Below, piece by piece: positions 11,554-52,001 of a stretch of 54,524 bases of DNA (position 1 is the first letter of the stretch; the number at the start of each line of letters is the position of its first letter). The stretch is from positions 1 to 54,524 of IMG/VR virus record IMGVR_UViG_3300031951_000211; one strand, given 5' to 3'. The notes under the pieces are model-generated. The model was not told the origin of the DNA and made no database searches. It saw nothing but the letters and a program-made list of their open reading frames with translations. The translations under genes and the position numbers were made by a program. This stretch comes from a virus (taxonomy: Duplodnaviria; Caudoviricetes).

Positions 11554-11928
11554 TTAATTCTCGTATTTGAAATATATTTTGTTTTGTTTTATTTGGAGCA
11601 GGGGATTTAATGCAATAGTGTTTAAGTCTAGGTCTTTAAAATAACTTAAGTCTAGGTAAGTAACTTTGTACAATCTGTATAAGCTATAGTCCCTCCGGCC
11701 TGCTAATCGAATATACTGTGCTTTAAAAGCTATATCCGTGGGGTCGTCAAAAAGTGAAGCGGCATCTAACAAGAAACTGTGTCCGACAAGGTTGCGGTAA
11801 TTATTTGTGTCGCGATGGTTTTTCGGTATTAGTTTTTTGCCAAAGTGCCGTTCCAACATTAAAAGCATTAATTTAGGGTCACAGTTGGTTTCAGACTCCA
11901 GTAGTTCTAAGTTGAAGAATAGGGCCAT
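11554..11928 (-). CDS. Conserved T5-like hypothetical protein
   Basis: Position between D10 and D11; NPLL C-terminus. Confidence 0.65.
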   Translation of the reverse strand: MALFFNLELLESETNCDPKLMLLMLERHFGKKLIPKNHRDTNNYRNLVGHSFLLDAASLFDDPTDIAFKAQYIRLAGRRDYSLYRLYKVTYLDLSYFKDLDLNTIALNPLLQIKQNKIYFKYEN

Positions 11929-11947
11929 AATGTGTTGCTAAGACTAT

Positions 11948-11985
11948 ATTATACTACATTGACCAACGTTTGACAAGTGTAAATT
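11948..11985 (-). promoter_or_regulatory. Phage promoter with AAATTTACAC-TTG upstream element
   Basis: TTGTCA-17-TATAAT. TTG-17-TATAAT promoters, most with a related upstream tract, also at about 16090, 20428, 21432, 24516, 25778, 33083, 38152, 39246, 40845, 52462. Confidence 0.75.
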
Positions 11986-11987
11986 TG

Positions 11988-13283
11988 TCATACCGTTATT
12001 ACTTGCCAGCCTTTACGTAAGTAAAGCGCAAGCCTGTCATTATTTTGTTTCTTATCTGCATATCCAGCAAAGTTAATGTCCACTACTAGTGGGTCTAGTT
12101 TGCCGTCATGCATACGTTGTACACGACCCACAATTTGTTCTAGCAGTGAGTCATTGCTCATTGGAGCAGCTAGGATAACACAGGACAAGCTGTTAATAGA
12201 TATGCCTTCTGAGAAGATTTGCCTGCTACCGCAAATGGCTTTTTTCTCTCCTGAGAGCACTTGCTGTTTAACAAGTTGTCGTTCTTCGTATTCGGTGTCG
12301 CCTGTAACAACCGCGCAATCTTCACCAATGTATTCCTTTACTTTGTGTAGAAACTCTACTCGATCTGCAATAACCAGTACCGAATGACCATTGCTAATAT
12401 GCATTTGTGCAAGGCCAGCAATAAACTGTCGGTAGTTTTCAGACTCTAGTAGTTCTGTTACTTTTTCAACCCAAGGCACGCCAGGTTTAAGCGTAATTCC
12501 ACTTTTAACAATGTGCACTGTGGGTGTTAGTGTATGCGACTGTGGCGGTTTGTAGACTAGTGGGCCAAAGTAGTCGCCGAATAGGATGTGTTTGCCGTCT
12601 TTGCGAATCATTGTGCCACTAAGGGCGATTCGGTAACGAGCATGAAAAGCGTCCACTGTTTGTGCAAATGTAGTGGCAGGACAGTGGTGGGCTTCGTCCA
12701 AGATAATAGTCCCAAACTCCTTAGCCAGGTCACCAGTGTGTTTGCTGAGCGTCTGTATATTGGCCACTGTGATAAAGTGGTCTTCGTGGTCAACTCGTCC
12801 ACCACCAATAACGCCTGGTTGTATCCCGAATAACACTTCGACTTCTTCGCACCACTGGTCTCGAAGTGCTGCGGTATGGGTGATAACAAGAGTTTTTTGT
12901 CCAAACTTGTGTGCAAGGTGTAAGGCTGTAAAAGTCTTTCCCCATCCCACAAGGGCATTGATAAAGCAGGTGTCGTCGATTGGGTCATAAACCACTTGCT
13001 GTTCGGGTCGTAAACCAAATTTAGGCGTTGGGAAAGGCACATCCTCAAGCACTCGTTTATCAATGATTTCATAGTCTTCGGGCACTAAATCTAGTCTGCC
13101 TTGCGGTATGCTGAGTATACCTTTTGGCAGGACTTTGTAGTTTTTGATAGTTTCTACTGGTGAGAACTTTTTAGCGCCAGTGTCTTTTTTGATTTTGTAC
13201 GTAAGTGCACTAATAATCTTTTTGGTATGTTCCACACCAGGATTATCCATGTAAATACGGTTTGATATTACTGCTTTAGGCAT
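11988..13283 (-). CDS. SF2 DEAH helicase (T5 D10-like)
   Basis: GWGKT, DEAHH, LSGT, QIVGRVQR. Confidence 0.92.
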   Translation of the reverse strand: MPKAVISNRIYMDNPGVEHTKKIISALTYKIKKDTGAKKFSPVETIKNYKVLPKGILSIPQGRLDLVPEDYEIIDKRVLEDVPFPTPKFGLRPEQQVVYDPIDDTCFINALVGWGKTFTALHLAHKFGQKTLVITHTAALRDQWCEEVEVLFGIQPGVIGGGRVDHEDHFITVANIQTLSKHTGDLAKEFGTIILDEAHHCPATTFAQTVDAFHARYRIALSGTMIRKDGKHILFGDYFGPLVYKPPQSHTLTPTVHIVKSGITLKPGVPWVEKVTELLESENYRQFIAGLAQMHISNGHSVLVIADRVEFLHKVKEYIGEDCAVVTGDTEYEERQLVKQQVLSGEKKAICGSRQIFSEGISINSLSCVILAAPMSNDSLLEQIVGRVQRMHDGKLDPLVVDINFAGYADKKQNNDRLALYLRKGWQVITV

Positions 13284-13813
13284 TAGACCATTCTCCAACT
13301 ATCTGGCTCTAGTTTTTCACAAAAGCCATAAAAAATAAATCCCATGCCGTGCTGCAACACTCTGGCATAACTTTCGAACTCACCTGGGTGTCGCATACAT
13401 TTAAATCGTGAACTAATGCCACATAATTCAACAACACACCCTAGACCATCTGCAGGTAAAACTTGTTTTATCTTCTTTGTTGTTAGTTTGGCGCGTAGCG
13501 TTTTTCTGTACTGGAATACGTGTCCGCTACTATCAATAAACCAAGTCTTTGATTTTGCCAACTTAACCAAGTCTGCTAAAAAATAAACCGCAGTGCGAAT
13601 TGCAAACAGCTTTTCGTCCTGCGATTTTAGTTGTAGACGACGTAATCCTAGTGTTGCACCAGGCACCGATTTATCGTCTACAACTTTAAAGCTAACAGCA
13701 GGCTGGTTTTGTTCGTCAACATAGTTAACCAAGTAGTATACCACACCATCACGCTGTTGAGGCTCACGCTCACCCAGCTTGAACACGGGCCAGGTTATTT
13801 CCGTTAAATTCAT
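13283..13813 (-). CDS. Conserved T5-like hypothetical protein
   Basis: WPVF, TLGLRRL, WFIDSSG; between pol and D10 as in T5. Confidence 0.7.
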   Translation of the reverse strand: MNLTEITWPVFKLGEREPQQRDGVVYYLVNYVDEQNQPAVSFKVVDDKSVPGATLGLRRLQLKSQDEKLFAIRTAVYFLADLVKLAKSKTWFIDSSGHVFQYRKTLRAKLTTKKIKQVLPADGLGCVVELCGISSRFKCMRHPGEFESYARVLQHGMGFIFYGFCEKLEPDSWRMV

Positions 13814-16282: not shown

Positions 16283-17133
16283 TTGTTTACATACTCTGCA
16301 ATACTTCGCACATTTTCGGCATCTAATTCGCCTGGGTCTGTGCCGTCTGGTAAGTCGATGATTTCAACAACAAAGCCTTCTGCTTCGAGCAATGGTTTGA
16401 GTTCACGGGCGGCACTGTTACCGGCAGCATCCCCGTCAAAAAGCAAGTAAATGTGCGTGATTCCTTGAGCTCGGAATGGTAGCAATTTTTGTTTTGTGTC
16501 ATTTTGAAGTGTTTTAGTACCAAAAGCGCAAACAACGTTTTCGCAACCGTTGTCGTATAAGTTAAGCATATCAAACATACCTTCCACTATTACCATTGAC
16601 GAGTACCCACTGGGTAAGTGTGCAGGAAATAGCGGAATTTTTACACCACTAGGGTAGTTTATATATCGTGGATTACCGGCACTCATGGTGTGGCGACCAA
16701 CAAACACTACTGTTTTTTGTGTAATGTCACGAATAGGGAACACAATACGATCTTGTAGCTTTTCAACTTGATTGGTATAAAAAGCACCAAAGTGTTTTAA
16801 TGTTGCTGGTGAAACACCACGAAATGTTTTTGTCCAAGGTGTGTAGCCTTGCGGCAATTCTAATTCTTGACCAAATGCTTTTAGTGCTGCTAGTTTTTCT
16901 TTTAGTTGTGCAATCTTCATTGGTACGGGGTTGGTAAAAACTCCGTAAAACTTAAAAAGATTGGTTTTAAAGCCACAAGCAAAGCAGTGGGCAACTCCCG
17001 ACACCCTGTCAACTCGAAAACTGGGATTTGAGTCAGGATGCTCTGGGTTTAAGCATTTGATAAGATAATCACGACCCGACACTTGATAGCCTAGGCCGTT
17101 CTTTTGTAGTAGTTCTAGTACTGGGTCGCTCAT
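16279..17133 (-). CDS. DNA primase
   Basis: CLNPEHPD...CFAC zinc finger; VEGMFD and FDGD TOPRIM motifs. Confidence 0.92.
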   Translation of the reverse strand: MSDPVLELLQKNGLGYQVSGRDYLIKCLNPEHPDSNPSFRVDRVSGVAHCFACGFKTNLFKFYGVFTNPVPMKIAQLKEKLAALKAFGQELELPQGYTPWTKTFRGVSPATLKHFGAFYTNQVEKLQDRIVFPIRDITQKTVVFVGRHTMSAGNPRYINYPSGVKIPLFPAHLPSGYSSMVIVEGMFDMLNLYDNGCENVVCAFGTKTLQNDTKQKLLPFRAQGITHIYLLFDGDAAGNSAARELKPLLEAEGFVVEIIDLPDGTDPGELDAENVRSIAEYVNK

Positions 17134-18521
17134 TATGCATTCCAAGGTAAATCAGCACCACTATCAGGCACTGCAACTACTTCTTCACTATTTTTCTTTG
17201 CACGTTTTACCGCTTCTTTAGCAGCAGGTTTGTCCACGCTCTGTGGCGAGATGCGTAGTGTGTCCCAGTCAATCGGGCATGTAAACGCCATTTCCTTGCC
17301 GCCTCGGATCTTAGTGGTTTCAAAAGAAACTGCATTGGTTTCTTTGTCGTGAGCTTCCATTGTAAGTGCGATATCTGCGGCATCCAAAATACCTTTGGCA
17401 AAACGGGCTTCTCCGTCTTTGTCGATCTGATACGGGCTAACCATAACGATCTCGTACTTACGGGCCAAGTTTTTAAGTTTCTTGGAGACTTCAATTTGTG
17501 GTTTCCAATCATACTGATCGTTTCCTTCTAGCACAATTTGGTTTAAGTAGTCAACTACCGCAACCTTTAGCTTGTCACCGAACTTTGCTTTGGCTTTGCC
17601 AATGTGCAAGTCGATACTGCTTAGGGTCAGGTCACGATCGTCAACAATAATCATTTGGTTGTCAGCTTTTAACTGAAAGTTACGTACTAGTGTTTCTTCA
17701 AATTTAAATCTGTCACGATGACGCAAGAACTCGCCAACAGTGTCATCAGCGTTTTCAAACATTCCTGCTCTTGCACGTACCACTCTTAGTACTTCTTCAT
17801 CTGTTAATTTGTGTTGCTTTAGGTTCTGAAGATTAACATTGGCTAAAATAGCCAAGTTACGCTCCATGGTCTCTTTTGCAGTCATTTCAATACTGAAATA
17901 AATACAACTGTTACCAGACTCATATTGATTAATAAAAAGATTGCTACAACTAATAGATTTACCGGAGCCCCGCTTACCCCCAATGAGAATGAGTTCCTGG
18001 CGAGCAACCCCACCAAGAACACTGTCAAAGCTATTATTAAGGCCAAGGTAAACACGTTCGCGCTCCAAGTCTTCAGGATGGCTAAACATCATCATGTCAG
18101 CCATTGTAAACACCTTTTCACTGGTGTGAGTTTTTTCTTCGATTGTTAGCGCAATTGTCGCTAAGTTTTCTTTTATTTCATTTGTGTCGTATAGGGGTAA
18201 TTTATCTACGAACTTATCTAGTAATTTTACCGTTTCACTTTGAGTGTACTGGTCGATTAGTGCGTCCAGTGCAACTTCTGCTGAAACGTCTGGTACCTCG
18301 GTTAACCGGAGAGTTGCCAGTGTTTTTGACGCCGGACCCTCCCTTAAGGTTAGTTCGAGTTCATCGAACGACGGAATAGCGCTGTACTTTTCATAGTACT
18401 TGTTTACCACGCTATACAAGGAAGAATACGCAGGATCTAAAAACACTAACTTGAGTTTGGCCCAGATATCCAGGTTACGTTCTGTTAGTAATTTATTTAA
18501 GACTACTGCTGATGTATCCAA
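17133..18521 (-). CDS. Replicative DnaB-like helicase
   Basis: GGKRGSGKS, FSIEM, VVDYLN. Confidence 0.9.
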   Translation of the reverse strand: MDTSAVVLNKLLTERNLDIWAKLKLVFLDPAYSSLYSVVNKYYEKYSAIPSFDELELTLREGPASKTLATLRLTEVPDVSAEVALDALIDQYTQSETVKLLDKFVDKLPLYDTNEIKENLATIALTIEEKTHTSEKVFTMADMMMFSHPEDLERERVYLGLNNSFDSVLGGVARQELILIGGKRGSGKSISCSNLFINQYESGNSCIYFSIEMTAKETMERNLAILANVNLQNLKQHKLTDEEVLRVVRARAGMFENADDTVGEFLRHRDRFKFEETLVRNFQLKADNQMIIVDDRDLTLSSIDLHIGKAKAKFGDKLKVAVVDYLNQIVLEGNDQYDWKPQIEVSKKLKNLARKYEIVMVSPYQIDKDGEARFAKGILDAADIALTMEAHDKETNAVSFETTKIRGGKEMAFTCPIDWDTLRISPQSVDKPAAKEAVKRAKKNSEEVVAVPDSGADLPWNA

Positions 18522-18892: not shown

Positions 18893-19642
18893 TTAAGCAG
18901 CTGCTTTAGCTTCGGCTTTGGCTTTCTTAGCTGCACCATCATAGTCTGCAACTTTAATGCCACGGCGAGTCAGCAATGTACGCAGACCACGCTCTGTTTT
19001 GTCAACTGCTTGAGCAATTTCTGCAACAGTCATAGTGTGGATACGGTCACCAAGTGCAACCACTGGATCAACGGACTCTTTGGCATGAGATTCGCGCTGT
19101 GCTGGAATCTTGCTGATCTGACCTTTACGAGTCAGGCTCAGTGCCTTACCACGAACTGAAGCAACAGTTTTGTTTAGCTTAGCGGCAATATCTTCGATAA
19201 AGTTACCGGCATCAGCCATTTTCACAAAAGTAGCTTCTTCGGCTTCTGTGTAAGTACGTGCAACTTCTACTTTTTCAGCAGGCTTTACACTACCAGTTAG
19301 TTCCAGGGCCAACAGCTTGCCTTGGATTTGTTTTGCAGAGAACTTGCCGTCAGCAAAGTTTTCAGCGATTTCTTTGTAAGTCAAGTTACCGGCATTTGCC
19401 TGAACGAAATCGGCAAGATCAGCGCCTTCGTCAGCAGTAAATGCACTGGTTTTTTCTTTTGCAAGACTAGCAACTTCACGGTCAAGTTGACGCAGTTTGC
19501 TAGCGATACTGCGAGTGGTTTTACCCAGTTGTTCAGCAGCACGCTCAACGCTATCAACGCTAACAGGGCTTTCGTTACCAACGATTTGCATCAATTGGTC
19601 AACAGCTTCGTCAGACCAGTTCTTAGTGGCTTTTTCAGTCAT
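18893..19642 (-). CDS. DNA-binding protein with tandem HTH repeats (T5 D5-like)
   Basis: Repeated W/Y-T-x-E...IA..L.KT..S units; synteny. Confidence 0.85.
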   Translation of the reverse strand: MTEKATKNWSDEAVDQLMQIVGNESPVSVDSVERAAEQLGKTTRSIASKLRQLDREVASLAKEKTSAFTADEGADLADFVQANAGNLTYKEIAENFADGKFSAKQIQGKLLALELTGSVKPAEKVEVARTYTEAEEATFVKMADAGNFIEDIAAKLNKTVASVRGKALSLTRKGQISKIPAQRESHAKESVDPVVALGDRIHTMTVAEIAQAVDKTERGLRTLLTRRGIKVADYDGAAKKAKAEAKAAA

Positions 19643-20402
19643 TTGTATTTTCTTTCAAGAAAGTATTTAAGTTTGTTATAATTGGGATGCCAAGTGATTC
19701 GGCTTTTTTGCGTTTTGTACTAGCCTTATCTTCTTCATCAACTAAATAGTCTGTTGTTTTAGTAACAGACTCTACTGCTCTGTAACCGGCAGCTTCCAGT
19801 GCGGTGTACGCCTCTGCTTTGGTTTTGTAAGAAGATAATTTTCCTGTGATACAAACAGTCTTGGAATTATTATTACTGATTGTATTGGAATTGAGATTAG
19901 ACTTAAAAGAGAACGGCAAAAACTCTCGCAAGTCAGGAAAATCAGTTTGTAACCAAGTAATTAGGTTTTCGGTTACTTTATCACCTAAACCTGCGCTTTT
20001 GCAGGTTTCGTATGTGATTTGGTCAATATGCTCAACCACTTCACAAATCTTTTTACTAGCGGTGTTACCTACCAGTGGAATTGAAAAACTGGCAAGCACT
20101 GTGGCTAAGTCAGCGGATTTAGCACGATTAATTTCATCAAGGAGTTTAGCCGCTGTTTTTTCACTGCCTAGTGCCACGGCTACACTATCCAAATCTAAAT
20201 AAAACAGCTCAGTTAAATCTTGCAAATCAAGTTTTTCAATTGACTTTGGGCCCATACCTTTGATGCCTAGTGTCTTGCAAAAGTGTTCAACTTTTTTACC
20301 AAGTTGAGCACCGCAAGCCGTGTTGCGACAAAAGAGTTGATCGTTGACCAATTCTAATGGGTAGCTACAGCAAGGGCAGGTTGTTGGGATTTCGATCTTC
20401 AT
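19635..20402 (-). CDS. NAD-dependent DNA ligase subunit B (Zn finger, HhH, BRCT)
   Basis: CPCC...C...C, IKGMG, VCITGKL...VTKTTDYLV. Confidence 0.9.
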   Translation of the reverse strand: MKIEIPTTCPCCSYPLELVNDQLFCRNTACGAQLGKKVEHFCKTLGIKGMGPKSIEKLDLQDLTELFYLDLDSVAVALGSEKTAAKLLDEINRAKSADLATVLASFSIPLVGNTASKKICEVVEHIDQITYETCKSAGLGDKVTENLITWLQTDFPDLREFLPFSFKSNLNSNTISNNNSKTVCITGKLSSYKTKAEAYTALEAAGYRAVESVTKTTDYLVDEEDKASTKRKKAESLGIPIITNLNTFLKENTND

Positions 20403-20473: not shown

Positions 20474-21424
20474 TTAAGCATCAACTTTATGTAAAATGCA
20501 AGGAATGATTTCGCCTGCTCTGATAACGGCAACTGTGTCACCAATTTGCAGGTCTAGCATTTCAATAAAGCCTGGGTTGTTTAGTGTGGCTCGTGATACT
20601 AGAGCATCGCCGATTAGCACAGGCTGTAGGATAGCAACTGGACTTACTTTACCACTCTTGCCGACCTGCCACTCAACACCAAGCAGTTGTGTTTCAACAT
20701 GGGCTGCACGTTCTTTTTTAGCGTAAGCACCACGAGGATGTTTGGCTGTGTAGCCCATTTCATAAAACTGAACATTATCATTAACACGGAACACAACACC
20801 GTCACAAGGAAAGATTTTGTCCAAGTCTGGTTCATTGATTACACCAAAGCCTGCGCTTTTAAGCAGTTCTAAATCTTGGTTAAAGGTGGGGGTTAGAATT
20901 GGCTGAACACCATAAGCAAAGAAGCTGAGTGCTCGTGACCGGAACTCCGCCACATCTTTTAGGTTTAGTGCACCAGCTGCGTAGTTACGAGCGTTTTCAA
21001 TGTTGATTGGAGCAACAATCTCACCAGTAATCTGGTAAATACCGCTAAACGGCACTGTTTGCGGAACAATCGGGTTGCCCAAGAACTTATCAGTTACAAT
21101 TTGACCTTCTACACCATCCCCACGGGTAAGAACTCGAACAAGATTACCGTCAACATAAAGTAAGCTGAGAGCTGCCCCATCCAGCTTAACACTTGTAGCA
21201 ATGCCTCGAATGCCTTGGAGAGGTTGGACTCCTTCATCTTCGTAATACTTTTGTAGTGAGTACATCTGATACAGATGTTTCTCGGTTTTGGAATTTTGCT
21301 TAGCACCCACAGCACCGTAACCCACTGAATCAGCAAGCGCATCAAACTGTGCGTCACTGATAAATGGGCTACCTGCGTAATACGCGGCTGAAGCTGAGTC
21401 GAGATATTGTGTGATTTTGTTCAT
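20474..21424 (-). CDS. NAD-dependent DNA ligase subunit A (adenylation + OB)
   Basis: KLDG, TRGDG, DGVV, WQVGKSG, RATLNN; split ligase as in T5. Confidence 0.93.
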   Translation of the reverse strand: MNKITQYLDSASAAYYAGSPFISDAQFDALADSVGYGAVGAKQNSKTEKHLYQMYSLQKYYEDEGVQPLQGIRGIATSVKLDGAALSLLYVDGNLVRVLTRGDGVEGQIVTDKFLGNPIVPQTVPFSGIYQITGEIVAPINIENARNYAAGALNLKDVAEFRSRALSFFAYGVQPILTPTFNQDLELLKSAGFGVINEPDLDKIFPCDGVVFRVNDNVQFYEMGYTAKHPRGAYAKKERAAHVETQLLGVEWQVGKSGKVSPVAILQPVLIGDALVSRATLNNPGFIEMLDLQIGDTVAVIRAGEIIPCILHKVDA

Positions 21425-21431
21425 AGCAACT

Positions 21432-21460
21432 ATTATAGCAGTTTAGGGTCATTGAATCAA
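21432..21460 (-). promoter_or_regulatory. Ligase promoter with the 13-mer motif in its spacer
   Basis: TTGATT-caatGACCCTAAACTGC-TATAAT. Confidence 0.75.
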
Positions 21461-21466: not shown

Positions 21467-21751
21467 TTATTCAATACCCTTGATCTTGTTGTAATAATGC
21501 TGTATAATTTCTTCACCTTCGGCCTGGGCACAAATATCCAGCATACCATCAATAATGGCTCTCATATTTTCCATAGATGCTGGAATTGAGACACCTTCGC
21601 GACTAGGGACCCACTCACCTTCGTAACTTAAAAAGTATTTACGTAGTTGAATGTACGTAGTTTCACGAAAGTCGTTTACCACTAATCGAACCTGAAAACC
21701 TTTGTCCATGTTTTCTTCGATTAGTTTTTCGTACTGAATATTAGTGTCCAT
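21467..21751 (-). CDS. PC4/p15-like ssDNA-binding protein
   Basis: VNDFRETTYIQLRKYF...GEWVPSREGVSIP. Confidence 0.8.
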   Translation of the reverse strand: MDTNIQYEKLIEENMDKGFQVRLVVNDFRETTYIQLRKYFLSYEGEWVPSREGVSIPASMENMRAIIDGMLDICAQAEGEEIIQHYYNKIKGIE

Positions 21752-21753
21752 AA

Positions 21754-21999
21754 TTATTCCAGGTTTGGCGCAGATATGATTTTCTGCAAGCTTTCGTGAT
21801 CTGCTGGCCATGCCCAGTGTGTAGCAGCCCAATCAGTAATACAATTATTTTCTGAGATTTGCGACTCTCGACCTACTGCACGCATGGTACTAGACCAATA
21901 GTCCCAGTAGGTGTCTAAGATAGCACGATCTGAGTAAATCTGGTATACTGCTTCGCTGGAAGTTTCTGAGGCTGGCTCACAGTAAATCCAGTATCTCAT
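21754..21999 (-). CDS. Hypothetical protein
   Basis: Trp-rich ORF in operon. Confidence 0.6.
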   Translation of the reverse strand: MRYWIYCEPASETSSEAVYQIYSDRAILDTYWDYWSSTMRAVGRESQISENNCITDWAATHWAWPADHESLQKIISAPNLE

Positions 22000-23820: not shown

Positions 23821-24189
23821 TTAACCTTTGATAACGCCCAAGAAGTAAACAGCGGCTTTGCCAGTTAGTTTACTCAAGATATCAGCGTCAACTGTTTTAC
23901 CGGCTTCTTCAATAGCAGCAGTTAGTTCTGCAATAGCCGACTCTTTTGATACGCGAGCAGGCTTGTCACCAGTGCTTGCAGTTTTGGTTTTGCCTGCAGG
24001 AGCAGCACCTGGGTCTTTTTTCACATACACACCAGCTTGCACTAGTACCATACGCACGCCGTTAGGCGACATTTCGATTTCTTCGGCAATGTCTTTGATA
24101 ATTTCAGTGGAATTTTCAGGAGTTGGGCCAGCACCTTCGTACTTGGCAATAACTTCTTGTTTCAATTCATCAGTCCATGTAGCAGCCAT
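23821..24189 (-). CDS. T5 D3-like DNA-binding protein
   Basis: WTDEL, SPNGVRMVLVQAGVYVKK, KLTGKAA. Confidence 0.85.
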   Translation of the reverse strand: MAATWTDELKQEVIAKYEGAGPTPENSTEIIKDIAEEIEMSPNGVRMVLVQAGVYVKKDPGAAPAGKTKTASTGDKPARVSKESAIAELTAAIEEAGKTVDADILSKLTGKAAVYFLGVIKG

Positions 24190-25931: not shown

Positions 25932-26080
25932 AAACTATCCATTATTTGCTGTCTTTGCTCTGGAGTGTAGTATTGCCACTCCACTATTTGTTTTAGTGTT
26001 CTGCCACAAGCTACACACTGTTGCAGTTTAGGGTCAAGATTGCACCTTTGGACGCAAGGACTTTCAATCTTCGAACTCAA
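25925..26080 (-). CDS. DUF1289-like small Cys protein
   Basis: SPCVQRCNLD...CVACGRTLKQIVEW; TTG start; not in ORF track. Confidence 0.75.
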   Translation of the reverse strand: MSSKIESPCVQRCNLDPKLQQCVACGRTLKQIVEWQYYTPEQRQQIMDSLR

Positions 26081-28707: not shown

Positions 28708-28711
28708 GTAT

Positions 28712-29082: not shown

Positions 29083-29085
29083 TAA

Positions 29086-39366: not shown

Positions 39367-39810
39367 TTACTGTTTAAAAGTTACTGGGCTGTACACATCG
39401 AACAGTTCAGTTTCAAAGTGCAAAACTAGACCACGTTCCATGTACTCGTAGTTGTCTGGAATATCTAGTACAATTTGCTTTTGCTCAATCTGTGTTAGCA
39501 ACTCACGGTGGCCTAAAAAGTTATCTTCTAGTTGCCACAAGTTTTCACGATTAACAAACACAATTTTTTGCGCCCAGTTAACTAAGTTGGCACTGCAAGG
39601 AATAAGTGCGTAGTTAAAGTTTGATCCACACGATCTGGCATTAATACCACGCTGCACTGCCATAGCTGCGCCTGTTGGTGAGCGAAGCAATCCAGCACTG
39701 CAAACAAACAACCAACGCGGAGCTTCGCCTTGATACTGGTTGGCATACGGTGCTGATGTTTTAAAAATTGCGTCGTTTTTACTGCCTTGAGCAAATGGTG
39801 TGTTTGTCAT
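39367..39810 (-). CDS. Low-molecular-weight phosphotyrosine phosphatase-like protein
   Basis: LFVCSAGLLRSPT P-loop, LDIPD. Confidence 0.85.
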   Translation of the reverse strand: MTNTPFAQGSKNDAIFKTSAPYANQYQGEAPRWLFVCSAGLLRSPTGAAMAVQRGINARSCGSNFNYALIPCSANLVNWAQKIVFVNRENLWQLEDNFLGHRELLTQIEQKQIVLDIPDNYEYMERGLVLHFETELFDVYSPVTFKQ

Positions 39811-40814
39811 AGTGTGGTTTTGTAGTTGTGTAGGGCAAAGCTGGCTGTGTTTTTTTGTTTTGATTCGCACATAATGTCTGCATAGGGATTAAAGCTAAGT
39901 GCCCAATCATTGCAGGCTTGGTTCCAGTAAAACTCTGAGTGTGCACGAAGTTTGGCTGCAGTAAAGCCCATTGTTTTAAGTTGCCGTAAGTCTGGGCGAA
40001 CCAGTGGGTCGTGGTCTACTAAGCAATCTTCTCGACTTACTGAATAGTGAATAGTAGGGCGAACACCACGCCAAGAGTCTACAACACGCTTAAACTTAGG
40101 GTCATCAGGTGTGATATACTCACCGCTGTAAATCCAGTGGTGGTGAATGTCTAGTACAAGTGCACAAGTGTCTGCTAGTTCTAGACTATGGTCAATGCCC
40201 CAGGTAAACTCGGCGTTTTCTATGGTTAAACAGTTACGTGCTTCGGGTGAGAGACGACGCAGTGCGGCTTTGATACCGTCTGGGCCACGCTTACCGCCGA
40301 TATGTACGTTGCACTTAAAGTCTTGAAACTCACGACCAAAGCCCATGTAACGGATCAAGTCGCAGTGATACTCAAACTCGGTAATTGAGTTTTCGATTAC
40401 GTGGTCTTGCTCCGATGCCAGCACACAAAACTGACCAGGGTGGAATGAGAGCTTGATATCCAGGTCGCGAGCACGTTGGCCGATTTTCGACAGATTGGTT
40501 TCAAGAAACTGCACAACTTCCGGCTGGAAGTAAAAAGGCATCCAGTCGTCATGTGTGTAAGCTGGTAGTAAATCGCTGGTAATGCGAAACATACGCAACT
40601 CAGGCACTTGACGGCCGATATATTCAATCTGACCGGCCAGGGCTGCAACGTTGGCACGCATAATATCCCACAGTCGTTCACGAGCACGATCAGGTGTTTG
40701 TGAACTGAGCCATTTGATAGTTGTGCCTGACTGATTCAGTTTAGGGTCTGCTTTAGACTCCGAAACTTGAACTTTACAGGCGAAACCAATGCGTTGGATA
40801 TTTTGATTGAACAT
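39807..40814 (-). CDS. uvsE: UV-damage endonuclease
   Basis: RIGFAC, FRITSDLLP, SFHPGQF, IENAE, VLDIHHHW, RAHS. Confidence 0.93.
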   Translation of the reverse strand: MFNQNIQRIGFACKVQVSESKADPKLNQSGTTIKWLSSQTPDRARERLWDIMRANVAALAGQIEYIGRQVPELRMFRITSDLLPAYTHDDWMPFYFQPEVVQFLETNLSKIGQRARDLDIKLSFHPGQFCVLASEQDHVIENSITEFEYHCDLIRYMGFGREFQDFKCNVHIGGKRGPDGIKAALRRLSPEARNCLTIENAEFTWGIDHSLELADTCALVLDIHHHWIYSGEYITPDDPKFKRVVDSWRGVRPTIHYSVSREDCLVDHDPLVRPDLRQLKTMGFTAAKLRAHSEFYWNQACNDWALSFNPYADIMCESKQKNTASFALHNYKTTL

Positions 40815-45843: not shown

Positions 45844-46158
45844 ATGAAACAGCCCAAATATAACATTACTCGTGAATTCAATAACTGGTTTTTTGACGAA
45901 GCCTATCCAGATACTGGTAGCAATCGTGCACAAGTTTACATGAGTGGCAATCCTGGTAACAAAGAGAATCGTGACTACTGGATGCGTCAGGCATTTGTAG
46001 CTGGAGCCAACTCTATGTGGGACGAAATCAACTTGTGCCTGGCTCAGTACGCTTGTGCAGTTGAGGGTCTAGACCCAGAACTGGTAACTCCCAGCGAAGT
46101 CTATGATCGTGCTCGTGAAAACTTGCACAGCCACATCAATCAGCTGGAGCTGTTTTAA
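45844..46158 (+). CDS. Hypothetical protein
   Basis: ORF in operon. Confidence 0.6.
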   Translation: MKQPKYNITREFNNWFFDEAYPDTGSNRAQVYMSGNPGNKENRDYWMRQAFVAGANSMWDEINLCLAQYACAVEGLDPELVTPSEVYDRARENLHSHINQLELF

Positions 46159-48503: not shown

Positions 48504-48685
48504 GCCACTTTTACAAATCTATCGCGCCGCCTCAAGCAAACTGGCGTTGGAGTTTTGGGAATAGCACAGATGTGTACTTTCAGTTTTACATCGCTAAACC
48601 ACCAAACCGACTACAACGCTGGCTAACACACAAACTACTAGGCATCCGCTGGGAACCTGTACCACCTACTAAACCACAACTATGA
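48500..48685 (+). CDS. Hypothetical protein
   Basis: ORF in operon. Confidence 0.55.
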   Translation: MSHFYKSIAPPQANWRWSFGNSTDVYFQFYIAKPPNRLQRWLTHKLLGIRWEPVPPTKPQL

Positions 48686-48999
48686 AATCCACACACAAAA
48701 TTGCTTACAACTACTGCATGGCCAACATTCAGCAACGAGCTGGGGAGGAGGCCGTCAGCCAAGCTTTTGCCGCCTTAGGGTCGGATAACTCGATCTTTGG
48801 TCTAGCAGAACCCATTGAAGGTGCTTATACAGAACTTGTCGAACAGCTACTTGGCCCAGAACTTTTTGAGTGGCTGATGTGGTGGATGTATGAAACTAAC
48901 TGTGGCACTAAAGCTATGGGTTTTGAAATTGATGGTGTAGACTACGACCCCACACAAATGACACTGTTTAAATTCTTGGAGATTGTTGATGCTGAATAA
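48682..48999 (+). CDS. Hypothetical protein
   Basis: EWLMWWMYETNCG. Confidence 0.6.
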   Translation: MKSTHKIAYNYCMANIQQRAGEEAVSQAFAALGSDNSIFGLAEPIEGAYTELVEQLLGPELFEWLMWWMYETNCGTKAMGFEIDGVDYDPTQMTLFKFLEIVDAE

Positions 49000-49149: not shown

Positions 49150-49407
49150 ATGAGCTATAAAATTCAATACCTAACAGCCAAACTACAAGAAGAAGCGGCT
49201 GAAATAATTCAAGCGGTTTCGAAAATTAACCGCTTTGGTGAAAACAACAAGCACCCAGATCGTACAACCACTAATCTCCAAGAACTGGTAGGCGAACTCG
49301 AAGATTTTCTTGCAATTGTCGCGGCTCTTGAGCACTATCAATACATCGACTTGACCCTAAGCCGAGACCAAATAGCCGTCAAAGCAAAAGCATTACTACA
49401 AGGCTAA
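49150..49407 (+). CDS. MazG-like nucleotide pyrophosphohydrolase
   Basis: LQEEAAEIIQAVSK..RFG...ELED. Confidence 0.7.
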   Translation: MSYKIQYLTAKLQEEAAEIIQAVSKINRFGENNKHPDRTTTNLQELVGELEDFLAIVAALEHYQYIDLTLSRDQIAVKAKALLQG

Positions 49408-49408
49408 A

Positions 49409-49684
49409 ATGTTCACAAATACACGAGATTACACAAAAACCTGGCATACTTTTGCTGGCTACGATTTCTTGGGAAATCCACAATTCACAACAGAAACGCA
49501 GCACGTGCTAATTGGCAGATTCGATGAATTCTTTATTCATTACCTAAGCGACCATTTAGCACACCTACAAATAAACCCCAATGACGACGGGCTAGAACGT
49601 GCCGAACAGTTCCGGGAATTGTATATTCAATGCCGCTTGGATTGTCAGCACGAATACGAAAAAGACCAGGCCGTATCCCCATAG
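49409..49684 (+). CDS. Hypothetical protein
   Basis: ORF in operon. Confidence 0.55.
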   Translation: MFTNTRDYTKTWHTFAGYDFLGNPQFTTETQHVLIGRFDEFFIHYLSDHLAHLQINPNDDGLERAEQFRELYIQCRLDCQHEYEKDQAVSP

Positions 49685-49748
49685 AAAAAATACACCTTGC
49701 TTTCTTCCAAAAAGTATGCTATAATTTAATATAACTTCTAGAGAGTTA

Positions 49749-49872
49749 AGATTGTAGTTATAGTGATAAATTCACTAAATGCGGTAGCTTGAAACTTAGG
49801 AGCCCTGTCGACGTTAGGTTTCAACGGCTGCTGCAATTTAGGGTCAATTTATCTAGTATAACTAAACAATCT
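49749..49872 (+). ncRNA. Long imperfect hairpin RNA candidate
   Basis: AGATTGT..AGTTATA..GATAAATT..CTAAAT..GCGGTAGC..TTGAAACTTA pairs segment-wise with its mirror; promoter about 49697-49725. Confidence 0.55.
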
Positions 49873-50013
49873 CGCATTGCTGATTGGGGCAACTTTTTTG
49901 TTTTTTATTGCTTTGTGTATTTGTTATGTACCAAAGCAATTTTTGTGGGTTGAGTATTCGTCCCACCTTTTCCACCCGACACGGTTCGGGATTTTTTATT
50001 TTTAGGCGTTATT

Positions 50014-50826
50014 ATGTCATTTTTAAATCGCTACACAGGAGTAGTGTTAACAAAGCAGGATATTTCAGCATATCCTTTTGAAGAGTTCGCGGAAGCCACC
50101 TTAGAACAACTAGAAGAAGTTGCACAGCGTCAACGGATTCCACAGTATAATTCGTGGATGATGCCACAAATGCTTGCTAAGTTCGGCAGCTTTAAGCCAG
50201 TGTGGAAGGATTCAAAGATTGATGCAGCACAAACACTTATGCAGAATTTGGGTTCCGACCCTAAACTGCGCGGTATGTACTTGGTAGCCACAAAACTTTC
50301 ACGTGGTCAGCTAATCCAAAAACAAAGCTCGCCACAAGGTGCTCACTATGGAGCACTAGTACCGCTTGTGTTGGCAGCCTTTAAAAAGTACCAGAACATT
50401 CCTTATAGTTCATGGAGTCGTGACGATATCAAGTATGTTGTAGACAAAAATCTAGCACAAGCCATGATGCTAACAGAAGTTCCACAACTATCACTAGAAC
50501 GACTACTAGAAATTCGTGAGATTGGTTTAACAGCCAAAAGTGGTCGAACTGAGGGTCAGACCAAGAACCCGCTTTCAACATGGTCCCTGACTGGTATCCA
50601 AGATACCGAATTGGGTCACCTGCCTAAGCTGGCGGTCACAATGCTTACACAAATTTGGTTAGCACACCCAACCATTCGCAACGAATATATGGTACTAGAC
50701 CCTGTTAATTGGGACAATGTTCCACAGCCGCTAGTATCCAACGATATTTTTAAGCCGGCAGCACCAGTTGCGCCAGTTAAGACTCCAACAAAGCAAGACA
50801 ACAGTTACTTGCCTTGGGAGGTTTAA
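50014..50826 (+). CDS. Conserved T5-like early protein
   Basis: YGALVPLVLAAFKKYQNIPY..W, MLTQIWLA. Confidence 0.7.
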   Translation: MSFLNRYTGVVLTKQDISAYPFEEFAEATLEQLEEVAQRQRIPQYNSWMMPQMLAKFGSFKPVWKDSKIDAAQTLMQNLGSDPKLRGMYLVATKLSRGQLIQKQSSPQGAHYGALVPLVLAAFKKYQNIPYSSWSRDDIKYVVDKNLAQAMMLTEVPQLSLERLLEIREIGLTAKSGRTEGQTKNPLSTWSLTGIQDTELGHLPKLAVTMLTQIWLAHPTIRNEYMVLDPVNWDNVPQPLVSNDIFKPAAPVAPVKTPTKQDNSYLPWEV

Positions 50827-50827
50827 A

Positions 50828-51154
50828 ATGCGTTATACCAAAGAAATTTGTGACCACATGGTCCAACAGTACACTGCAGGTGTTTCGGTGCCGGACCTAG
50901 CTTTAGAGCTTGACGTGCCAGAGCGGAGCGTAATTGCCAAGCTGAGCAGCCTCGGGGTGTACCAAAAAAAGTCATATGTCAACAAGCGCGGTGAAATTCC
51001 AGTTAAAAAGTCAGAGCACATCGAACGAATTGCACATTTGCTCAACACCAACCTAGAATTGCTGGAATCGCTGGAAAAGGTGAACAAAACAGTGCTGGTA
51101 ATGATTGAGCGTGCTTTATCTGACCCTAAATCGACACAATCGGACAAAATTTGA
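50828..51154 (+). CDS. T5 A2-like DNA-binding protein (paralog 1)
   Basis: YT.E...Y.AG.SV..LA..L....RSVIAKLS..GVY...ESLEKVNK. Confidence 0.75.
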   Translation: MRYTKEICDHMVQQYTAGVSVPDLALELDVPERSVIAKLSSLGVYQKKSYVNKRGEIPVKKSEHIERIAHLLNTNLELLESLEKVNKTVLVMIERALSDPKSTQSDKI

Positions 51155-51176
51155 CTTAATTTTTGTTAAATGCAGC

Positions 51177-51211
51177 AAAGCCCCACTATCTTCGGATAAT
51201 GGGGCTTTTTT
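51177..51211 (+). terminator. Intrinsic terminator
   Basis: AAAGCCCCA...TGGGGCTTTTTT. Confidence 0.85.
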
Positions 51212-51259
51212 ATTGCCTCGAATTTGCCACGGCTTAGGGTCAGATAAGTGAATATCCAC

Positions 51260-51298
51260 TTGACAGGATAGGTTACCCACTGGTATAATTTGGCGCAG
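51260..51298 (+). promoter_or_regulatory. ORF-less sigma70 promoter + TTGGCGCAG (copy 1 of 4)
   Basis: TTGACA-18-TATAAT-TTGGCGCAG; also 53087, 53363, 54418. Confidence 0.7.
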
Positions 51299-51327
51299 AC
51301 TGGGCAACACAAGTTAGGCAACCAAAA

Positions 51328-51365
51328 CAAAAGCCCCTGGCAGGGCGACTGCGCAGGGGCTTTTG
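51328..51365. terminator. Bidirectional terminator closing the large ncRNA
   Basis: CAAAAGCCCCTG...CAGGGGCTTTTG. Confidence 0.8.
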
Positions 51366-51904
51366 AACTCTCGAGGTTTTTTACTCTGTTCAGGAACATT
51401 ACTGCGGAGTAACCAACTCCGACTCTTACTACCTGACCCTAAAGTATAGCAGTCGTGCCTGGTGTTGTGGTTAATTCCAGAGTACGCTTGTCTTTTGTGG
51501 GGAGTTTGGGTTGCACGTTTCAGTCCTGGGTGCGTCTCGGGCATTGTCCAGGATATCCGTGACTTACAGTATTGGTTCGGGTCTTCACCCCACCACATTT
51601 TTTGCGACTTTGGGCTTTGTCGGCTTACGGGTCCACCGCTTAGCAACCTCACATAATTTTTAATGACCCTTGTGTGGTTTGGGGTCGTGCTTTGTTACGG
51701 TTGGCTCCGACTAGATAATTTTACGAACCCTCTGCAGTTTAGGGTCGAACAACCTTACGGGTTGTTATTGCTCGGGCACTATATAGTCCGCCACACTAGC
51801 TATTTATAAGACCTTTTAACGTGGGTACAGGATAAGACGACATGGGATATAGGGACGGTTCCCTAGCATTACTCATTTCCAGAACAAGTCTGGGTTTTCA
51901 TCCT
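51365..51904 (-). ncRNA. Large structured ncRNA candidate (about 540 nt) downstream of the hammerhead cut
   Basis: No credible ORF, many hairpins, bounded by ribozyme site and terminator. Confidence 0.55.
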
Positions 51905-52001
51905 GACCCTAAACTGCGCCAGCGAGCGATTTGGGAAGATCGCTGCAAACTGTTGCTGAGGTTTAAGGTTTCGCACAACTTGCATGTGCTCATCAGAGGG
52001 T
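51878..52001 (-). ncRNA. Type I hammerhead ribozyme
   Basis: CCT-CTGATGA-GCACA-TGCAAGT-TGTGC-GAAA-CCTTAAAC...GTTTAGG-GTC^AGG; loop II GCAAGT complementary to ACTTGT (51884-51889). Confidence 0.85.

Follow-up and report, generated by a model that had tools for sequence, protein, structure and literature searches.

The window, a 54,524-nucleotide genome fragment of an uncultured freshwater T5-like phage, carries one short asymmetric word at many scattered places, which raises the question of what keeps the word there and which molecule reads it. The original prediction had offered two answers: docking sites on mRNAs for a guide RNA end liberated by a hammerhead ribozyme, or an operator, nick or loading site for a phage protein. 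Our analysis indicates that the word is most likely a docking site of a phage protein rather than the target of a ribozyme-made RNA guide. The word, hereafter the box, reads GACCCTAA(A/G)(C/T)TG and spans approximately 12 bases, with GACCCTAA as its core. The window holds 18 cores, 6 of them within exact 13-mers, and all of the exact 13-mers, 12-mers, near copies (as cores) and the one opposite copy reported earlier were recovered. The copies to the left of a cluster near the right end are:

8041-8048, minus strand: core, sense, in an SbcC-like gene (7844-9682) at offset 1634; same place in relatives G001 and G004
11873-11880, minus strand: core, sense, frame 0, codon 17 of a 124-aa ORF (11554-11928)
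17621-17628, minus strand: core, sense, in a DnaB-like helicase gene (17133-18521), under synonymous constraint
21438-21450, minus strand: exact 13-mer in the ligase promoter spacer; arrangement kept in relatives while other spacer bases vary
26023-26035, minus strand: exact 13-mer in the tRNA region, ~90 nt upstream of tRNA-Met
27320-27332, minus strand: exact 13-mer, 33 nt downstream of tRNA-Gly(GCC)
28577-28589, minus strand: 12/13 box, sense, codon 8 of a ClpP-like gene (28011-28610), ~80 nt downstream of the tmRNA gene
40096-40103, minus strand: core, sense, in a UvdE-like endonuclease gene (39807-40814)
40736-40748, minus strand: 12/13 box, sense, codon 23 of the UvdE-like gene
48775-48782, minus strand: core, antisense to an ORF (48682-48999)

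The box is far more frequent than composition or coding content predicts. Exact 13-mers match 6 times in the window and never in 100 dinucleotide shuffles, and 13 matches with up to two mismatches compare with a mean of 1.15 in such shuffles; no word of 9 to 13 letters recurs in the window as often as the core and its extensions. Within genes, 10 sense copies were observed against 2.06 expected from synonymous shuffling and 0.85 from codon permutation, and none of 1000 codon-preserving shuffles of the window genes reached 10. The excess thus outlives the shuffle that the original prediction had itself named as able to refute it. Boxes occur in two reading frames as well as in non-coding DNA.

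The orientation of the copies is less informative. The box does follow the direction of its genes, as had been claimed, and across 80 related loci ~300 copies outside the cluster lie on the gene strand versus 1 on the opposite strand; all 54 distinct contexts outside ORFs of at least 80 aa, again beyond the cluster, are also co-oriented with transcription. However, co-orientation with genes says little, because codon usage alone predicts ~30 sense copies per antisense copy (only 0.07 antisense in-gene copies are expected in the window under synonymous shuffling), so that the in-gene sense bias is largely what codon usage leads one to expect. A flip of orientation with the gene strand, placed at 41.7 kb here, shows clearly in whole relatives, whose late genes carry their copies on their own strand. 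In the window it is weak: the plus-strand gene block at 41.8-49.1 kb has 0 sense copies and, in antisense, one exact core (48775) and two degenerate copies (45055 and 46057), and sense copies on plus-strand genes begin only beyond it, at 49353, 50257 and 51122.

Comparison across this uncultured family of T5-like phages shows that the box is maintained by selection at the nucleotide level, at roughly 15-30 places per genome, and is lineage-specific, linked to promoter registers and clustered. All nine whole relatives carry 14-31 cores per ~100 kb versus 1-8 copies of a reversed control word; the T5 genome has 2 cores, and the 10 of Vibrio phage pVp-1 form no cluster. For the window and three whole relatives, synonymous shuffles give 2.2-4.1 in-gene sense copies where 10-14 are observed, the observed counts being reached in none of 300-1000 shuffles, and in whole relatives the 12-17 sense sites within genes per genome make up the majority of dispersed copies. 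Across 80 related loci and the window, Asp-Pro-Lys/Asn is written GAC CCT AAN in 147 of 183 cases against 18% expected; GAC CCT is used for 80% of Asp-Pro pairs before Lys or Asn versus 21% (132/632) before other residues. Synonymous sites are also conserved in the DnaB-like helicase: 43 of 64 orthologues have the core, with ACC for Thr in 51/58 and CTA for Leu in 52/60, whereas adjacent synonymous codons vary freely. The core at codon 17 of the 124-aa ORF is kept in 11 of 48 orthologues, and the box persists down to 61% ligase identity. In a logo of 120 non-redundant contexts, information is confined to positions -3 to +12 and the flanks are unconserved; in non-coding boxes, positions 11-13 vary beyond what wobble pairing covers. 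For comparison with oriented words of host genomes, such as Chi, KOPS and uptake sequences, which are highly repeated there, a 14-mer was matched against prokaryote genomes, one for each species; the 80 stretches listed, of at least 120, were all single hits.

The ligase promoter illustrates how the box is placed. As originally proposed, one copy fills its spacer (21460-21432, minus strand): TTGATT at 21460-21455 is followed by a 17-nt spacer ending in the box, TATAAT at 21437-21432 and the ligase ATG at 21424. Sigma-70 promoters hold 28 of the 191 non-redundant sites, at two exact registers: a -10-like hexamer starts 13 nt past the box start in 17 and 21 nt past it in 11, against an expectation of 1.12 sites per offset. 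In some promoters the box shares bases with the -35 hexamer (TT+GACC), and in others it fills the spacer up to an extended -10. Since box-bearing promoters already have near-consensus -35 and -10 elements, repression fits better than activation.

Near the right end of the window, eight cores lie within 2.6 kb (49353-51917) in both orientations and in an order conserved in relatives:

49353-49360, plus strand: core, sense, in a MazG-like ORF (49150-49407)
49833-49845, minus strand: 12/13 box (core from 49838); plus-strand complement in the 3' arm of a long hairpin (49749-49873)
50257-50269, plus strand: exact 13-mer, sense, frame 0 (D-P-K-L), inside a 270-aa ORF (50014-50826)
51122-51129, plus strand: core at the 3' end of a small A2/D5-like helix-turn-helix gene (50828-51154); offset 294 also in G001 and G003
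51234-51241, minus strand: core, 19 nt upstream of the -35 of a consensus promoter (51260-51289)
51435-51442, plus strand: core in the non-coding cluster
51734-51746, minus strand: exact 13-mer in the non-coding cluster; the copy at 51905, 158 nt away, is its perfect inverted partner
51905-51917, plus strand: exact 13-mer; its minus-strand complement supplies hammerhead stem III with its 3' strand and provides the GUC cleavage site

Box orientations alternate here within 100-300 bp, and antisense in-gene copies near the cluster number 1-2 against 0.07-0.36 expected from codon-preserving shuffles; box orientation therefore appears free where coding and promoter constraints are absent. The hairpin lies downstream of a promoter at 49697-49726 and has a fold z-score of -4.39, and the 270-aa ORF had no family match in PHROGs and Pfam scans. 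Contig depth steps up near 50-51.7 kb, from 16 to 25.5 in run X1 and from 8.9 to 12.6-13.4 in run X3, which is the only hint of a terminal-repeat boundary at the cluster.

The last box of the cluster overlaps the ribozyme on which the guide proposal was built:

51902-52001, minus strand: hammerhead-type self-cleaving ribozyme candidate (CUGAUGA, stem II, GAAA, long stem III, GUC)
52002-52076, minus strand: tRNA-Glu(UUC), immediately 5' of the ribozyme candidate

Comparative evidence supports this element (52000 to 51905, minus strand, directly 3' of tRNA-Glu) as a real and conserved hammerhead and a candidate for self-cleavage, with the predicted cut between 51905 and 51904. The core (CUGAUGA ... 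GAAA) and the cleavage triplet are invariant columns in 19 of 19 distinct sequences. In stems II and III, 95.7% of cells are paired, versus 84.2% when shuffled (0/500 as high) and 22-45% with slid partners, and 7 pairs show changes on both sides; stem I offers only 3 testable pairs, all invariant. Rfam hammerhead models gave no match at the gathering score in the window, nor at E values up to 5 in 48.5-54.5 kb. The two predicted RNAs said to carry the complement of the box both do so, at the end of the hammerhead 5' product and in the 3' arm of the 49833 hairpin.

It is at this point that the guide proposal, in which cleavage releases an RNA ending in GCAGUUUAGGGUC that would bind the boxes of many mRNAs through this 3' end, becomes very improbable. 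In its favour, the conserved hammerhead has a predicted 5' product that ends, in the window, in GCAGUUUAGGGUC, a perfect 13/13 complement of the box 13-mer, and 15 of the 19 distinct relatives keep TTAGGGUC at the tail end, where the stem III 3' strand equals the anti-box. Yet in the other four (L215, L223, L224 and L230) the tail has become TGTGGGTC, TGGGGGTC, TTGGGGTC or TGAGGGTC, with the enzyme strand compensating, while 5-10 unchanged GACCCTAA cores remain per locus. No box variant tracking the altered tails was found in these drifted-tail loci, including downstream of the tails, and adjacent inverted boxes showed no partner-specific extended complementarity. The guide model is not supported because the tail drifted while the boxes stayed the same, and RNA-RNA pairing as the constraint is argued against because inverted boxes lack extended pairing and the tail drifts alone. 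Furthermore, the tail is locked in a 9-bp intramolecular stem, the variation at box positions 11-13 falls outside wobble pairing, and the copies embedded in promoters are left unexplained. A broader RNA-level role, as a transcript site for an RNA-binding protein or sequence-specific endoribonuclease acting in processing, decay or translational control, possibly with stable RNAs that neutralise or present the box by pairing it with anti-box, is unlikely, though less so than the guide. Dispersed copies all lie on the transcribed sense strand; several fall in the first 8-25 codons or ~40 nt past a start site (ClpP-like, UvdE-like and 124-aa genes); three separate contexts have a box 20-35 nt past the 3' end of a tRNA; and the box or its complement forms one stem arm in hammerhead stem III, a tmRNA helix of relatives, a tRNA-adjacent hairpin and the 49.8 kb hairpin. 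However, the sense bias is already predicted by codon usage, an RNA signal has no need of exact -35/-10 registers, promoter copies lie upstream of their own start sites, and alternation in the cluster puts half of the copies on the wrong strand of any transcript. No RNA-binding protein or ribonuclease family was matched among the ~47 of roughly 120 window ORFs covered with PHROGs and Pfam.

Recognition of the box by a phage site-specific nicking or cutting enzyme, as a counterpart of the T5 virion DNA interruptions, seems a shade less probable again. T5-like phages are known for such nicks, which are site-specific and, according to PMC10644984, occur on one strand only. The annotated major T5 nick at 9748/9749 lies within the T5 repeat cluster at the terminal repeat end, and a short asymmetric site with free flanks would suit a nicking enzyme. 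T5 nicks comprise a few major and many minor ones, and 14-31 boxes per genome resemble their number. Against this, the strand of the box depends on gene direction and changes back and forth within the cluster, the sequence TTGCCC(T)GCGC shared by two annotated T5 nick sites is unrelated both to the box and to the T5 13-mer, and the exact registers in promoter spacers are unexplained. The least credible account gives the word no function and treats it as a by-product of codon usage, a shared D-P-K-L motif or common descent of the contigs. Codon usage does favour the sense word ~30-fold over its complement, and many loci are related, so that cross-locus counts are not independent. This account is nevertheless ruled out by counts above every codon-preserving shuffle, by a GAC CCT choice specific to Asp-Pro before Lys or Asn and by the synonymous constraint in the helicase; it also conflicts with boxes in two reading frames and non-coding DNA, with the retention of a box in a promoter spacer that is otherwise variable, and with its persistence to 61% ligase identity.

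We favour, with a probability of about 0.45, an asymmetric site at which a DNA-binding phage protein from the D5/A2 helix-turn-helix family would dock, and which would work like the operators and stoperators of mycobacteriophage L5. Among the originally proposed operator, nick or loading sites, a protein site in general is the better-supported family, given the exact promoter registers, the two orientations in the cluster and the flanking helix-turn-helix paralogues, although the following are candidate binders only:

18893-19642, minus strand: D5-like transcriptional regulator (phrog_323, E 6e-40)
23821-24189, minus strand: A2-like DNA-binding protein (phrog_1725, E 2.8e-23)
50828-51154, plus strand: small A2/D5-like helix-turn-helix paralogue beside the cluster (phrog_1725, E 5.5e-4, weak)
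52522-52833, minus strand: small A2/D5-like helix-turn-helix paralogue beside the cluster (phrog_323, E 4e-7; phrog_1725, E 1.6e-5)
53788-54147, minus strand: small A2/D5-like helix-turn-helix paralogue (phrog_323, E 2.6e-5; phrog_1725, E 3e-4)

T5 A2 itself matches phrog_1725 at E 4e-52. The D5-like gene belongs to the operon that the box-bearing ligase promoter drives, and its product has weak sigma-70 region-4-type helix-turn-helix matches (25.9 bits against a Pfam cut-off of 25.7). The three small paralogues flank the cluster with weak family matches. D5-like, A2-like and PC4-like genes occur in 33 of 33 full-length related loci, and because all candidate genes are universal, gene presence against box count is uninformative on the binder.

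We infer that DNA is the molecule recognised, and likewise the identity of the binder and the effect of binding. The ~12-bp box would be recognised in double-stranded DNA by a sequence-specific protein of the phage lineage, the likeliest being one of the D5/A2-family helix-turn-helix proteins. Bound at a promoter box, this protein could block or modulate host RNA polymerase, since the box overlaps the -35 hexamer or fills the spacer to the extended -10; bound within genes or just past start sites, it may act as a roadblock or anchoring point. In the non-coding region beside the A2-like genes, the dense two-orientation cluster would form a binding array of high occupancy. It could insulate transcription units from one another or switch between them, and it may also correspond to the array of repeats found in T5 where the terminal repeat ends on its inner side. 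The confinement of information to -3 to +12 with free flanks looks like that of protein sites; exact -10 registers, for which an RNA signal has no obvious need, and the L5 repressor precedent, of apparently the same anatomy, also argue for a protein site. Against it, the exact box occurs in only 1 of the 34-53 strong sigma-70-type promoters in each set examined (window and three sequenced relatives), most dispersed copies lie deep in genes with no obvious operator role, co-orientation outside the cluster is predicted equally well by an RNA-level signal, the box or its complement recurs as a stem arm in structured RNAs, and the small paralogues match A2/D5 weakly while the D5-like sigma-70 region-4 match is at the cut-off.

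Several known systems share parts of this arrangement. The ribozyme candidate resembles type I hammerheads of phages and bacteria in its CUGAUGA and GAAA cores and GUC triplet, and the pattern scan that was run for this element also found compact hammerheads with the same CCCU-CUGAUGAG start in unrelated viral contigs; unlike known hammerheads, it has a ~45 nt stem III insertion, is Rfam-negative and abuts a tRNA 3' end. The phage P1 C1 operators, T4 MotA boxes and the lambda PR' Q-binding element are short phage-specific words set at or between promoter elements, at many promoters or dispersed sites, but they are not known outside promoters or at more than one register, whereas the box has two registers and an in-gene majority. 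T5 nick sites are likewise short, sequence-specified and scattered over a T5-like genome; the T5 record note gives their consensus as NPu pGCGCN, and unlike them the box lacks GCGC, follows the gene strand and alternates in the cluster. A further parallel is the T5 direct repeat DRD, located in repeat region 3, the injection-stop region, in the account of Davison (bioRxiv 10.1101/866236). In the T5 sequence, DRD is the 13-mer GTGCAAATCCGAC. About 9 copies sit in non-coding DNA where the terminal repeat ends on its inner side, adjoining the region of the pre-early A2 gene; only 3 others are dispersed, one at 12154 and two in tandem within D13, the SbcC-like gene. Both are lineage-specific words with a cluster beside A2-like genes and a copy in an SbcC-like gene, but DRD is unrelated in sequence and all its copies point in one direction.

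The L5 repressor, according to PMC9283540, binds more than 20 asymmetric 13-mers, in promoters and elsewhere, in the orientation of transcription. Most dispersed boxes lie inside genes, unlike the L5 sites in short intergenic spaces, and L5 is not described there as having a dense two-orientation array like the one seen here. The orientation bias of the box may stem from codon usage and promoter-element overlap instead of a mechanism, and both orientations occur in the cluster. L5 is temperate, while the phage here is T5-like and T5 relatives are virulent. The box resembles the L5 operators and stoperators in being asymmetric, 12-13 nt long and present at many sites (14-31 per genome here), in overlapping promoters at 28 of 191 sites and in its co-orientation with genes outside the cluster.

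The claim that exact copies of a 13-mer recur across the window was borne out, with six found against none in 100 shuffles, and 13 occurrences with up to two mismatches against 1.15 expected. The 8-nt core of this asymmetric word (hereafter the box), GACCCTAA, is present in 18 copies, and together with its extensions it tops the window's repeated words at k = 9-13. A logo built on 120 non-redundant contexts from the window and 80 related loci reads yyT-GACCCTAA-R-Y-T-G, where conservation stops. Core density is 14-31 per ~100 kb in every one of the nine whole or near-whole relatives, compared with 1-8 for the reversed control word, and their copies outside a non-coding cluster are scattered over early and late genes. 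Phage T5 has two cores (control three) and Vibrio phage pVp-1 has ten (control three) without a cluster. The top repeated word of pVp-1 was rejected as a counterpart of the box, being a promoter plus 5' leader cassette and not a free-standing word. Elsewhere in the window, two degenerate boxes lie back to back at 46057-46084, flanking a GGGTCTAGACCC palindrome within ORF 45844-46158.

The window (54.5 kb), which comprises the entire IMG/VR record, is a fragment of a T5-like phage whose family A DNA polymerase shares 50% identity with the polymerases of T5-like Vibrio phages (Demerecviridae). Other products include ribonucleotide reductase, an SbcCD-like nuclease, helicases, a primase, a split NAD-dependent ligase, a D5-like regulator and A2-like proteins, alongside 25 tRNA genes and a permuted tmRNA gene. 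Genes were called as greedy longest ORFs, of which small ones may be spurious, and protein-family scans covered ~47 of the roughly 120 window ORFs. Individual features include:

567-1037, minus strand: ferritin/Dps-like ORF, annotated in PHROGs as a DNA-binding protein
6315-7010, minus strand: homing-endonuclease-like ORF between exonuclease and RusA-like genes
19635-20402 and 20474-21424, minus strand: NAD-dependent DNA ligase as two ORFs
28668-29112, minus strand: permuted (two-piece type) tmRNA gene with the tag ANDQVYALAA, among tRNA genes

Among clan models the tmRNA fits the betaproteobacterial one best, a possible pointer to the host. A DNA-level search found no cultured phage close to the window. 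Scanning prokaryote genomes with a 14-mer gave one match per genome among the matches listed and no host clue, and a 14-mer scan of IMG/VR matched once in each of the 80 listed of at least 115 stretches. Since this IMG/VR scan was uninformative, relatives were gathered via the ligase protein, which returned 103 IMG/VR stretches encoding relatives (the best 80 at 61-99% identity), many belonging to contigs of ~100 kb. Thirteen studies contained the phage DNA, in metagenomes of freshwater and in samples carrying the label fungus metagenome; the 20 sequencing runs containing it are DNA metagenomes in which it occurs as contigs, with no RNA run among those listed. Reads of the one raw-read run gave no coverage of the phage. 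Four overlapping copies of GGACCACCTGGAC (1314-1353, minus strand) form a 9-nt tandem repeat encoding collagen-like G-P-P, within an ORF at 1015-1614 that weakly matches tail fibres.

The enrichment of the box persists under codon-preserving shuffling, the test to which the original prediction had exposed it. Ten sense copies in the window's 74 ORFs of at least 80 aa compare with 2.06 expected under synonymous shuffling and 0.85 under codon permutation, and none of 1000 shuffles reached ten; three whole relatives gave 10-14 sense copies against 2.6-4.1 expected. The shared D-P-K codons noted previously are also apparent across the window and 80 loci, where Asp-Pro-Lys/Asn is encoded as GAC CCT AAN in 147 of 183 cases (18% predicted by codon usage), and Asp-Pro followed by any other residue uses GAC CCT in 132 of 632. 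The DnaB-like helicase gene contains the box in a different frame (..G ACC CTA A..). Its core is kept in 43 of 64 distinct orthologues (58-98% identical), with Thr as ACC in 51/58 and Leu as CTA in 52/60, and the adjacent Asp, Arg and Leu codons are free. Only 11 of 48 orthologues retain the core at a second site checked, in the gene of a 124-aa protein. Counts over related loci carry phylogenetic dependence, and the effect is nevertheless large. The box enrichment is nucleotide-level selection, and a box without function is barely conceivable.

Orientation is a different matter. Boxes do run with transcription as originally described, but this is a weaker argument than it looks, as codon usage predicts it. 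Across the 80 loci, ~300 copies lie on the gene strand and one on the opposite strand. For genes, the shuffles predict just 0.07-0.36 antisense copies, ~30-fold below sense, because the complement requires a stop codon or rare codons; therefore, the ~300:1 count is largely what coding constraints give any selected word. The reported flip at 41.7 kb is weak within the window and clear in whole relatives, in which late-gene copies are found on the late-gene strand. More generally, motif-gene co-orientation can arise through codon usage alone, which calls for caution.

The copy said to fill the ligase promoter spacer does so: TTGATT is followed by a 17-nt spacer ending in the 13-nt box, TATAAT, and the ligase ATG 7 nt on. 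Across relatives the box in this promoter is constant and the remaining spacer bases differ. At 17 of 191 non-redundant sites (drawn from 80 loci, three whole genomes and the window) the start of a -10-like hexamer follows the box's first base at exactly 13 nt, and at 11 sites the distance is exactly 21 nt; chance predicts 1.12 per offset. The +13 class represents complete promoters with the spacer filled by the box, whose terminal TG produces an extended -10 (TGnTATAAT), and in the +21 class the preceding TT plus GACC constitute the -35 hexamer. Hexamers resembling a -10 element that precede the box by 15 or 37 nt were discarded as classes of their own, being mostly A/T-rich upstream promoter parts. 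Box-bearing promoters form a small class: of the 34-53 with the form TTGNNN-N16-18-TATAAT in the window and in three whole relatives, just 1 has the exact box, and a few further promoters have CCCTAAA-like spacers in the same register. By eye, no -10 element was seen at the right distance from window copies inside genes. The operon under the box-bearing ligase promoter includes the D5-like regulator gene, a layout that an autoregulated repressor would show.

The ligase start codon, 7 nt past the -10 hexamer, has no Shine-Dalgarno sequence (21420-21437, minus strand) and relatives are alike, so that the mRNA from this promoter looks leaderless. Another promoter between the two ligase ORFs (-35 at 20456) has a degenerate box, CCCAAACCGG, in its spacer. 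The window also contains a family of perfect TTGACA/TATAAT promoters:

51260-51289, plus strand: TTGACA/TATAAT promoter
53087-53116, plus strand: TTGACA/TATAAT promoter
53363-53392, plus strand: TTGACA/TATAAT promoter
54418-54446, plus strand: TTGACA/TATAAT promoter

Each is followed by a common start region, T(T)TGGCGC, and about seven to nine family members occur in each of two whole or near-whole relatives (G001 and G003). The spacer CGGGC..AAATTAT.TG. is shared by most such promoters in three whole relatives and by the window copy at 53363. At least one in the window, whose unit from 53393 to about 53495 (plus strand) has a terminator at 53466-53487, may yield a small RNA.

Most of the nine relatives have a cluster of some 8-13 boxes in both orientations within 2-3.5 kb, matching window positions 49.3-51.9 kb; the exception is relative G006, with only about five copies over 4.6 kb. 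Two structured elements belong to this region:

49749-49873, plus strand: imperfect hairpin of ~125 nt, with a promoter upstream at 49697-49726
51902-52001, minus strand: candidate hammerhead-type ribozyme directly after the encoded CCA of tRNA-Glu

The cluster starts with the tRNA-Glu gene and then the hammerhead, from which site order and approximate spacing are kept in about 20 relatives. The sites lie at approximately +88, +250-415, +470-690, +690-860 and +790-1040; the first, third and fifth run against the ribozyme strand and the second and fourth run with it. The intervening DNA is no more than 65-90% similar. Complementarity flanking neighbouring inverted copies does not exceed that of non-neighbouring ones and usually spans 0-3 nt, with a few exceptions such as window pairs of 13 and 14 nt. 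The boxes behave as independent copies of a short word and not as arms of conserved long helices. Products of small genes around the cluster (50828-51154, 52522-52833 and 53788-54147) match the T5 A2/D5 families weakly; BLASTP of the 108-aa protein found no similarity to T5 A2 (E 9.1), only the profile match being weakly positive. Mean k-mer depth of contigs rises rightward over about 50000-51700, from 16 to 25.5 in run X1 and from 8.9 to 12.6-13.4 in run X3; a collapsed terminal repeat could have its inner end here. Contigs from public runs break at 51681-51710 and 51912-51989.

The hammerhead was identified through pattern and covariation; Rfam did not detect it and found no family in the cluster beyond tRNA. 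It consists of CUGAUGA, a 5-bp stem II, GAAA, a long stem III with an insertion of ~45 nt, and GUC. An IMG/VR pattern scan recovered the same hammerhead in relatives, as well as compact canonical hammerheads in unrelated contigs. In 19 distinct sequences 95.7% of cells are paired, compared with 84.2% in shuffled sequences (0/500 as high) and 22-45% in the slid-partner control. Seven pairs have changes on both sides and the catalytic core is invariant; stem I was tested on only three pairs, all invariant. One 100-kb relative (G001) has two diverged hammerheads near either contig end, at 532 and 99964 (L197 and L201), which are either paralogues separated by about 1 kb if the map is circular, or imperfect terminal redundancy.

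The predicted complementarity of the hammerhead end to the 13-mer was recovered at 13/13 positions in the window, formed by the 3' strand of stem III and the cleavage triplet, and this strand complements the core in 15 of 19 relatives. The original prediction went on to propose, as one of two readings, that the ribozyme-freed end guides itself to boxes in mRNAs; the other was an operator, nick or loading site for a phage protein. In the other four relatives (L215, L223, L224 and L230) the tail is altered to TGTGGGTC, TGGGGGTC, TTGGGGTC or TGAGGGTC; the enzyme strand compensates in three and only partly in L224. Unchanged cores persist in the loci with these tails (10, 5, 8 and 9 copies, respectively), and no box variants fitting the altered tails lie downstream in those loci. 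Since the tail drifts and is compensated with the boxes unchanged, its constraint is that of the ribozyme's own stem, not box pairing. We take the coincidence of tail and box to mean that an arm of the ribozyme was built on one array copy or overlaps it. The guide proposal failed both the covariation and the inverted-pair extension tests, and is very improbable.

A broader RNA-level role for the box is unlikely, and several observations favour it. All dispersed copies are sense in one transcript or another, several come early in genes (the first 8-25 codons), and the box is found 20-35 nt past a tRNA 3' end in three separate contexts. The box or its complement is a stem arm in four places, including the hammerhead. 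It also forms an arm of the tmRNA 3'-part helix in several relatives, not in the window, and of a small hairpin near tRNAs (TTAGGGT-8 nt-ACCCTAA). The long hairpin at 49749-49873, downstream of its promoter, has a box/anti-box arm (z -4.39; MFE -53.4 kcal/mol over 180 nt), and the anti-box previously placed at 49833 indeed sits in the 3' arm opposite a degenerate box. TAGGGT occurs within 80 nt upstream of 16/191 sites against about 3.5 expected, an excess that we cannot explain under a DNA model except as closely spaced inverted sites. It is improbable, on this evidence, that the box is read in RNA (with or instead of DNA) as a recognition word of phage transcripts throughout the lineage, and that stable RNAs hold it in box/anti-box stems, with cleavage or refolding exposing or hiding anti-box ends and linking pre-early RNA processing to mRNA fate. 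If true, the hammerhead next to tRNA-Glu, the tmRNA and the 49.8 kb hairpin RNA would couple that processing to at least a dozen early and late mRNAs.

The best-supported reading, to which we assign a probability of about 45%, is that the box is a sequence-specific double-stranded DNA site for a predicted phage protein. It would serve as an operator in a subset of promoters and as a roadblock or anchoring point elsewhere, and the cluster would be a high-occupancy array between transcription units. Comparing box counts with the presence of D5-like, A2-like and PC4-like genes was uninformative, as these genes occur in 33/33 full-length loci (47 of the 80 loci, with incomplete flanks, were left out). 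A nick or cut site is quite unlikely. T5-type nicks are described as falling on one strand (PMC10644984), and the two annotated T5 nick sites have TTGCCC(T)GCGC in common, which is unrelated to the box or to the 13-mer of the T5 injection-stop region.

T5-like phages are a classical model whose temporal programme, two-step DNA entry and injection-stop repeats are still poorly explained. The present result shows that, in a large freshwater branch of the group that is uncultured, selection maintains a short asymmetric word at promoters, in essential replication genes and in a conserved array beside A2-like genes. If it is a protein site, one 12-bp sequence and five or six candidate helix-turn-helix proteins offer a cheap handle on a genome-wide control or DNA-handling system. 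Six candidates are encoded at 18893-19642, 21467-21832, 23821-24189, 50828-51154, 52522-52833 and 53788-54147. This would be a virulent-phage system resembling the network of operators and stoperators, which has until now been described for temperate mycobacteriophages. The closest precedent is the L5 repressor, for which asymmetric 13-mer operators and stoperators are described (PMC9283540). The box system may work like that network, and we do not class it as a member because most of its sites fall within genes, the phage belongs to the T5-like group and the binder is putative.

The box also prompts a comparison with T5 itself (NC_005859; L372-L378), whose injection-stop region has its own 13-mer, GTGCAAATCCGAC, in nine copies (0-1 mismatch) that all point the same way and span the inner boundary of the left terminal repeat. 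Further copies are found at 12154-12166 and as a tandem pair at 78936-78963 in the SbcC-like gene D13. This 13-mer was dropped as a nick-site analogue, since the annotated nick sites have a different word. We take the nine copies to be the 'nine DRD repeats' that Davison describes in T5 repeat region 3 without an assigned function there (bioRxiv 10.1101/866236). The DRD array and the box are alike in place and kind, whereas the box differs in its sequence, orientation and wide dispersal.
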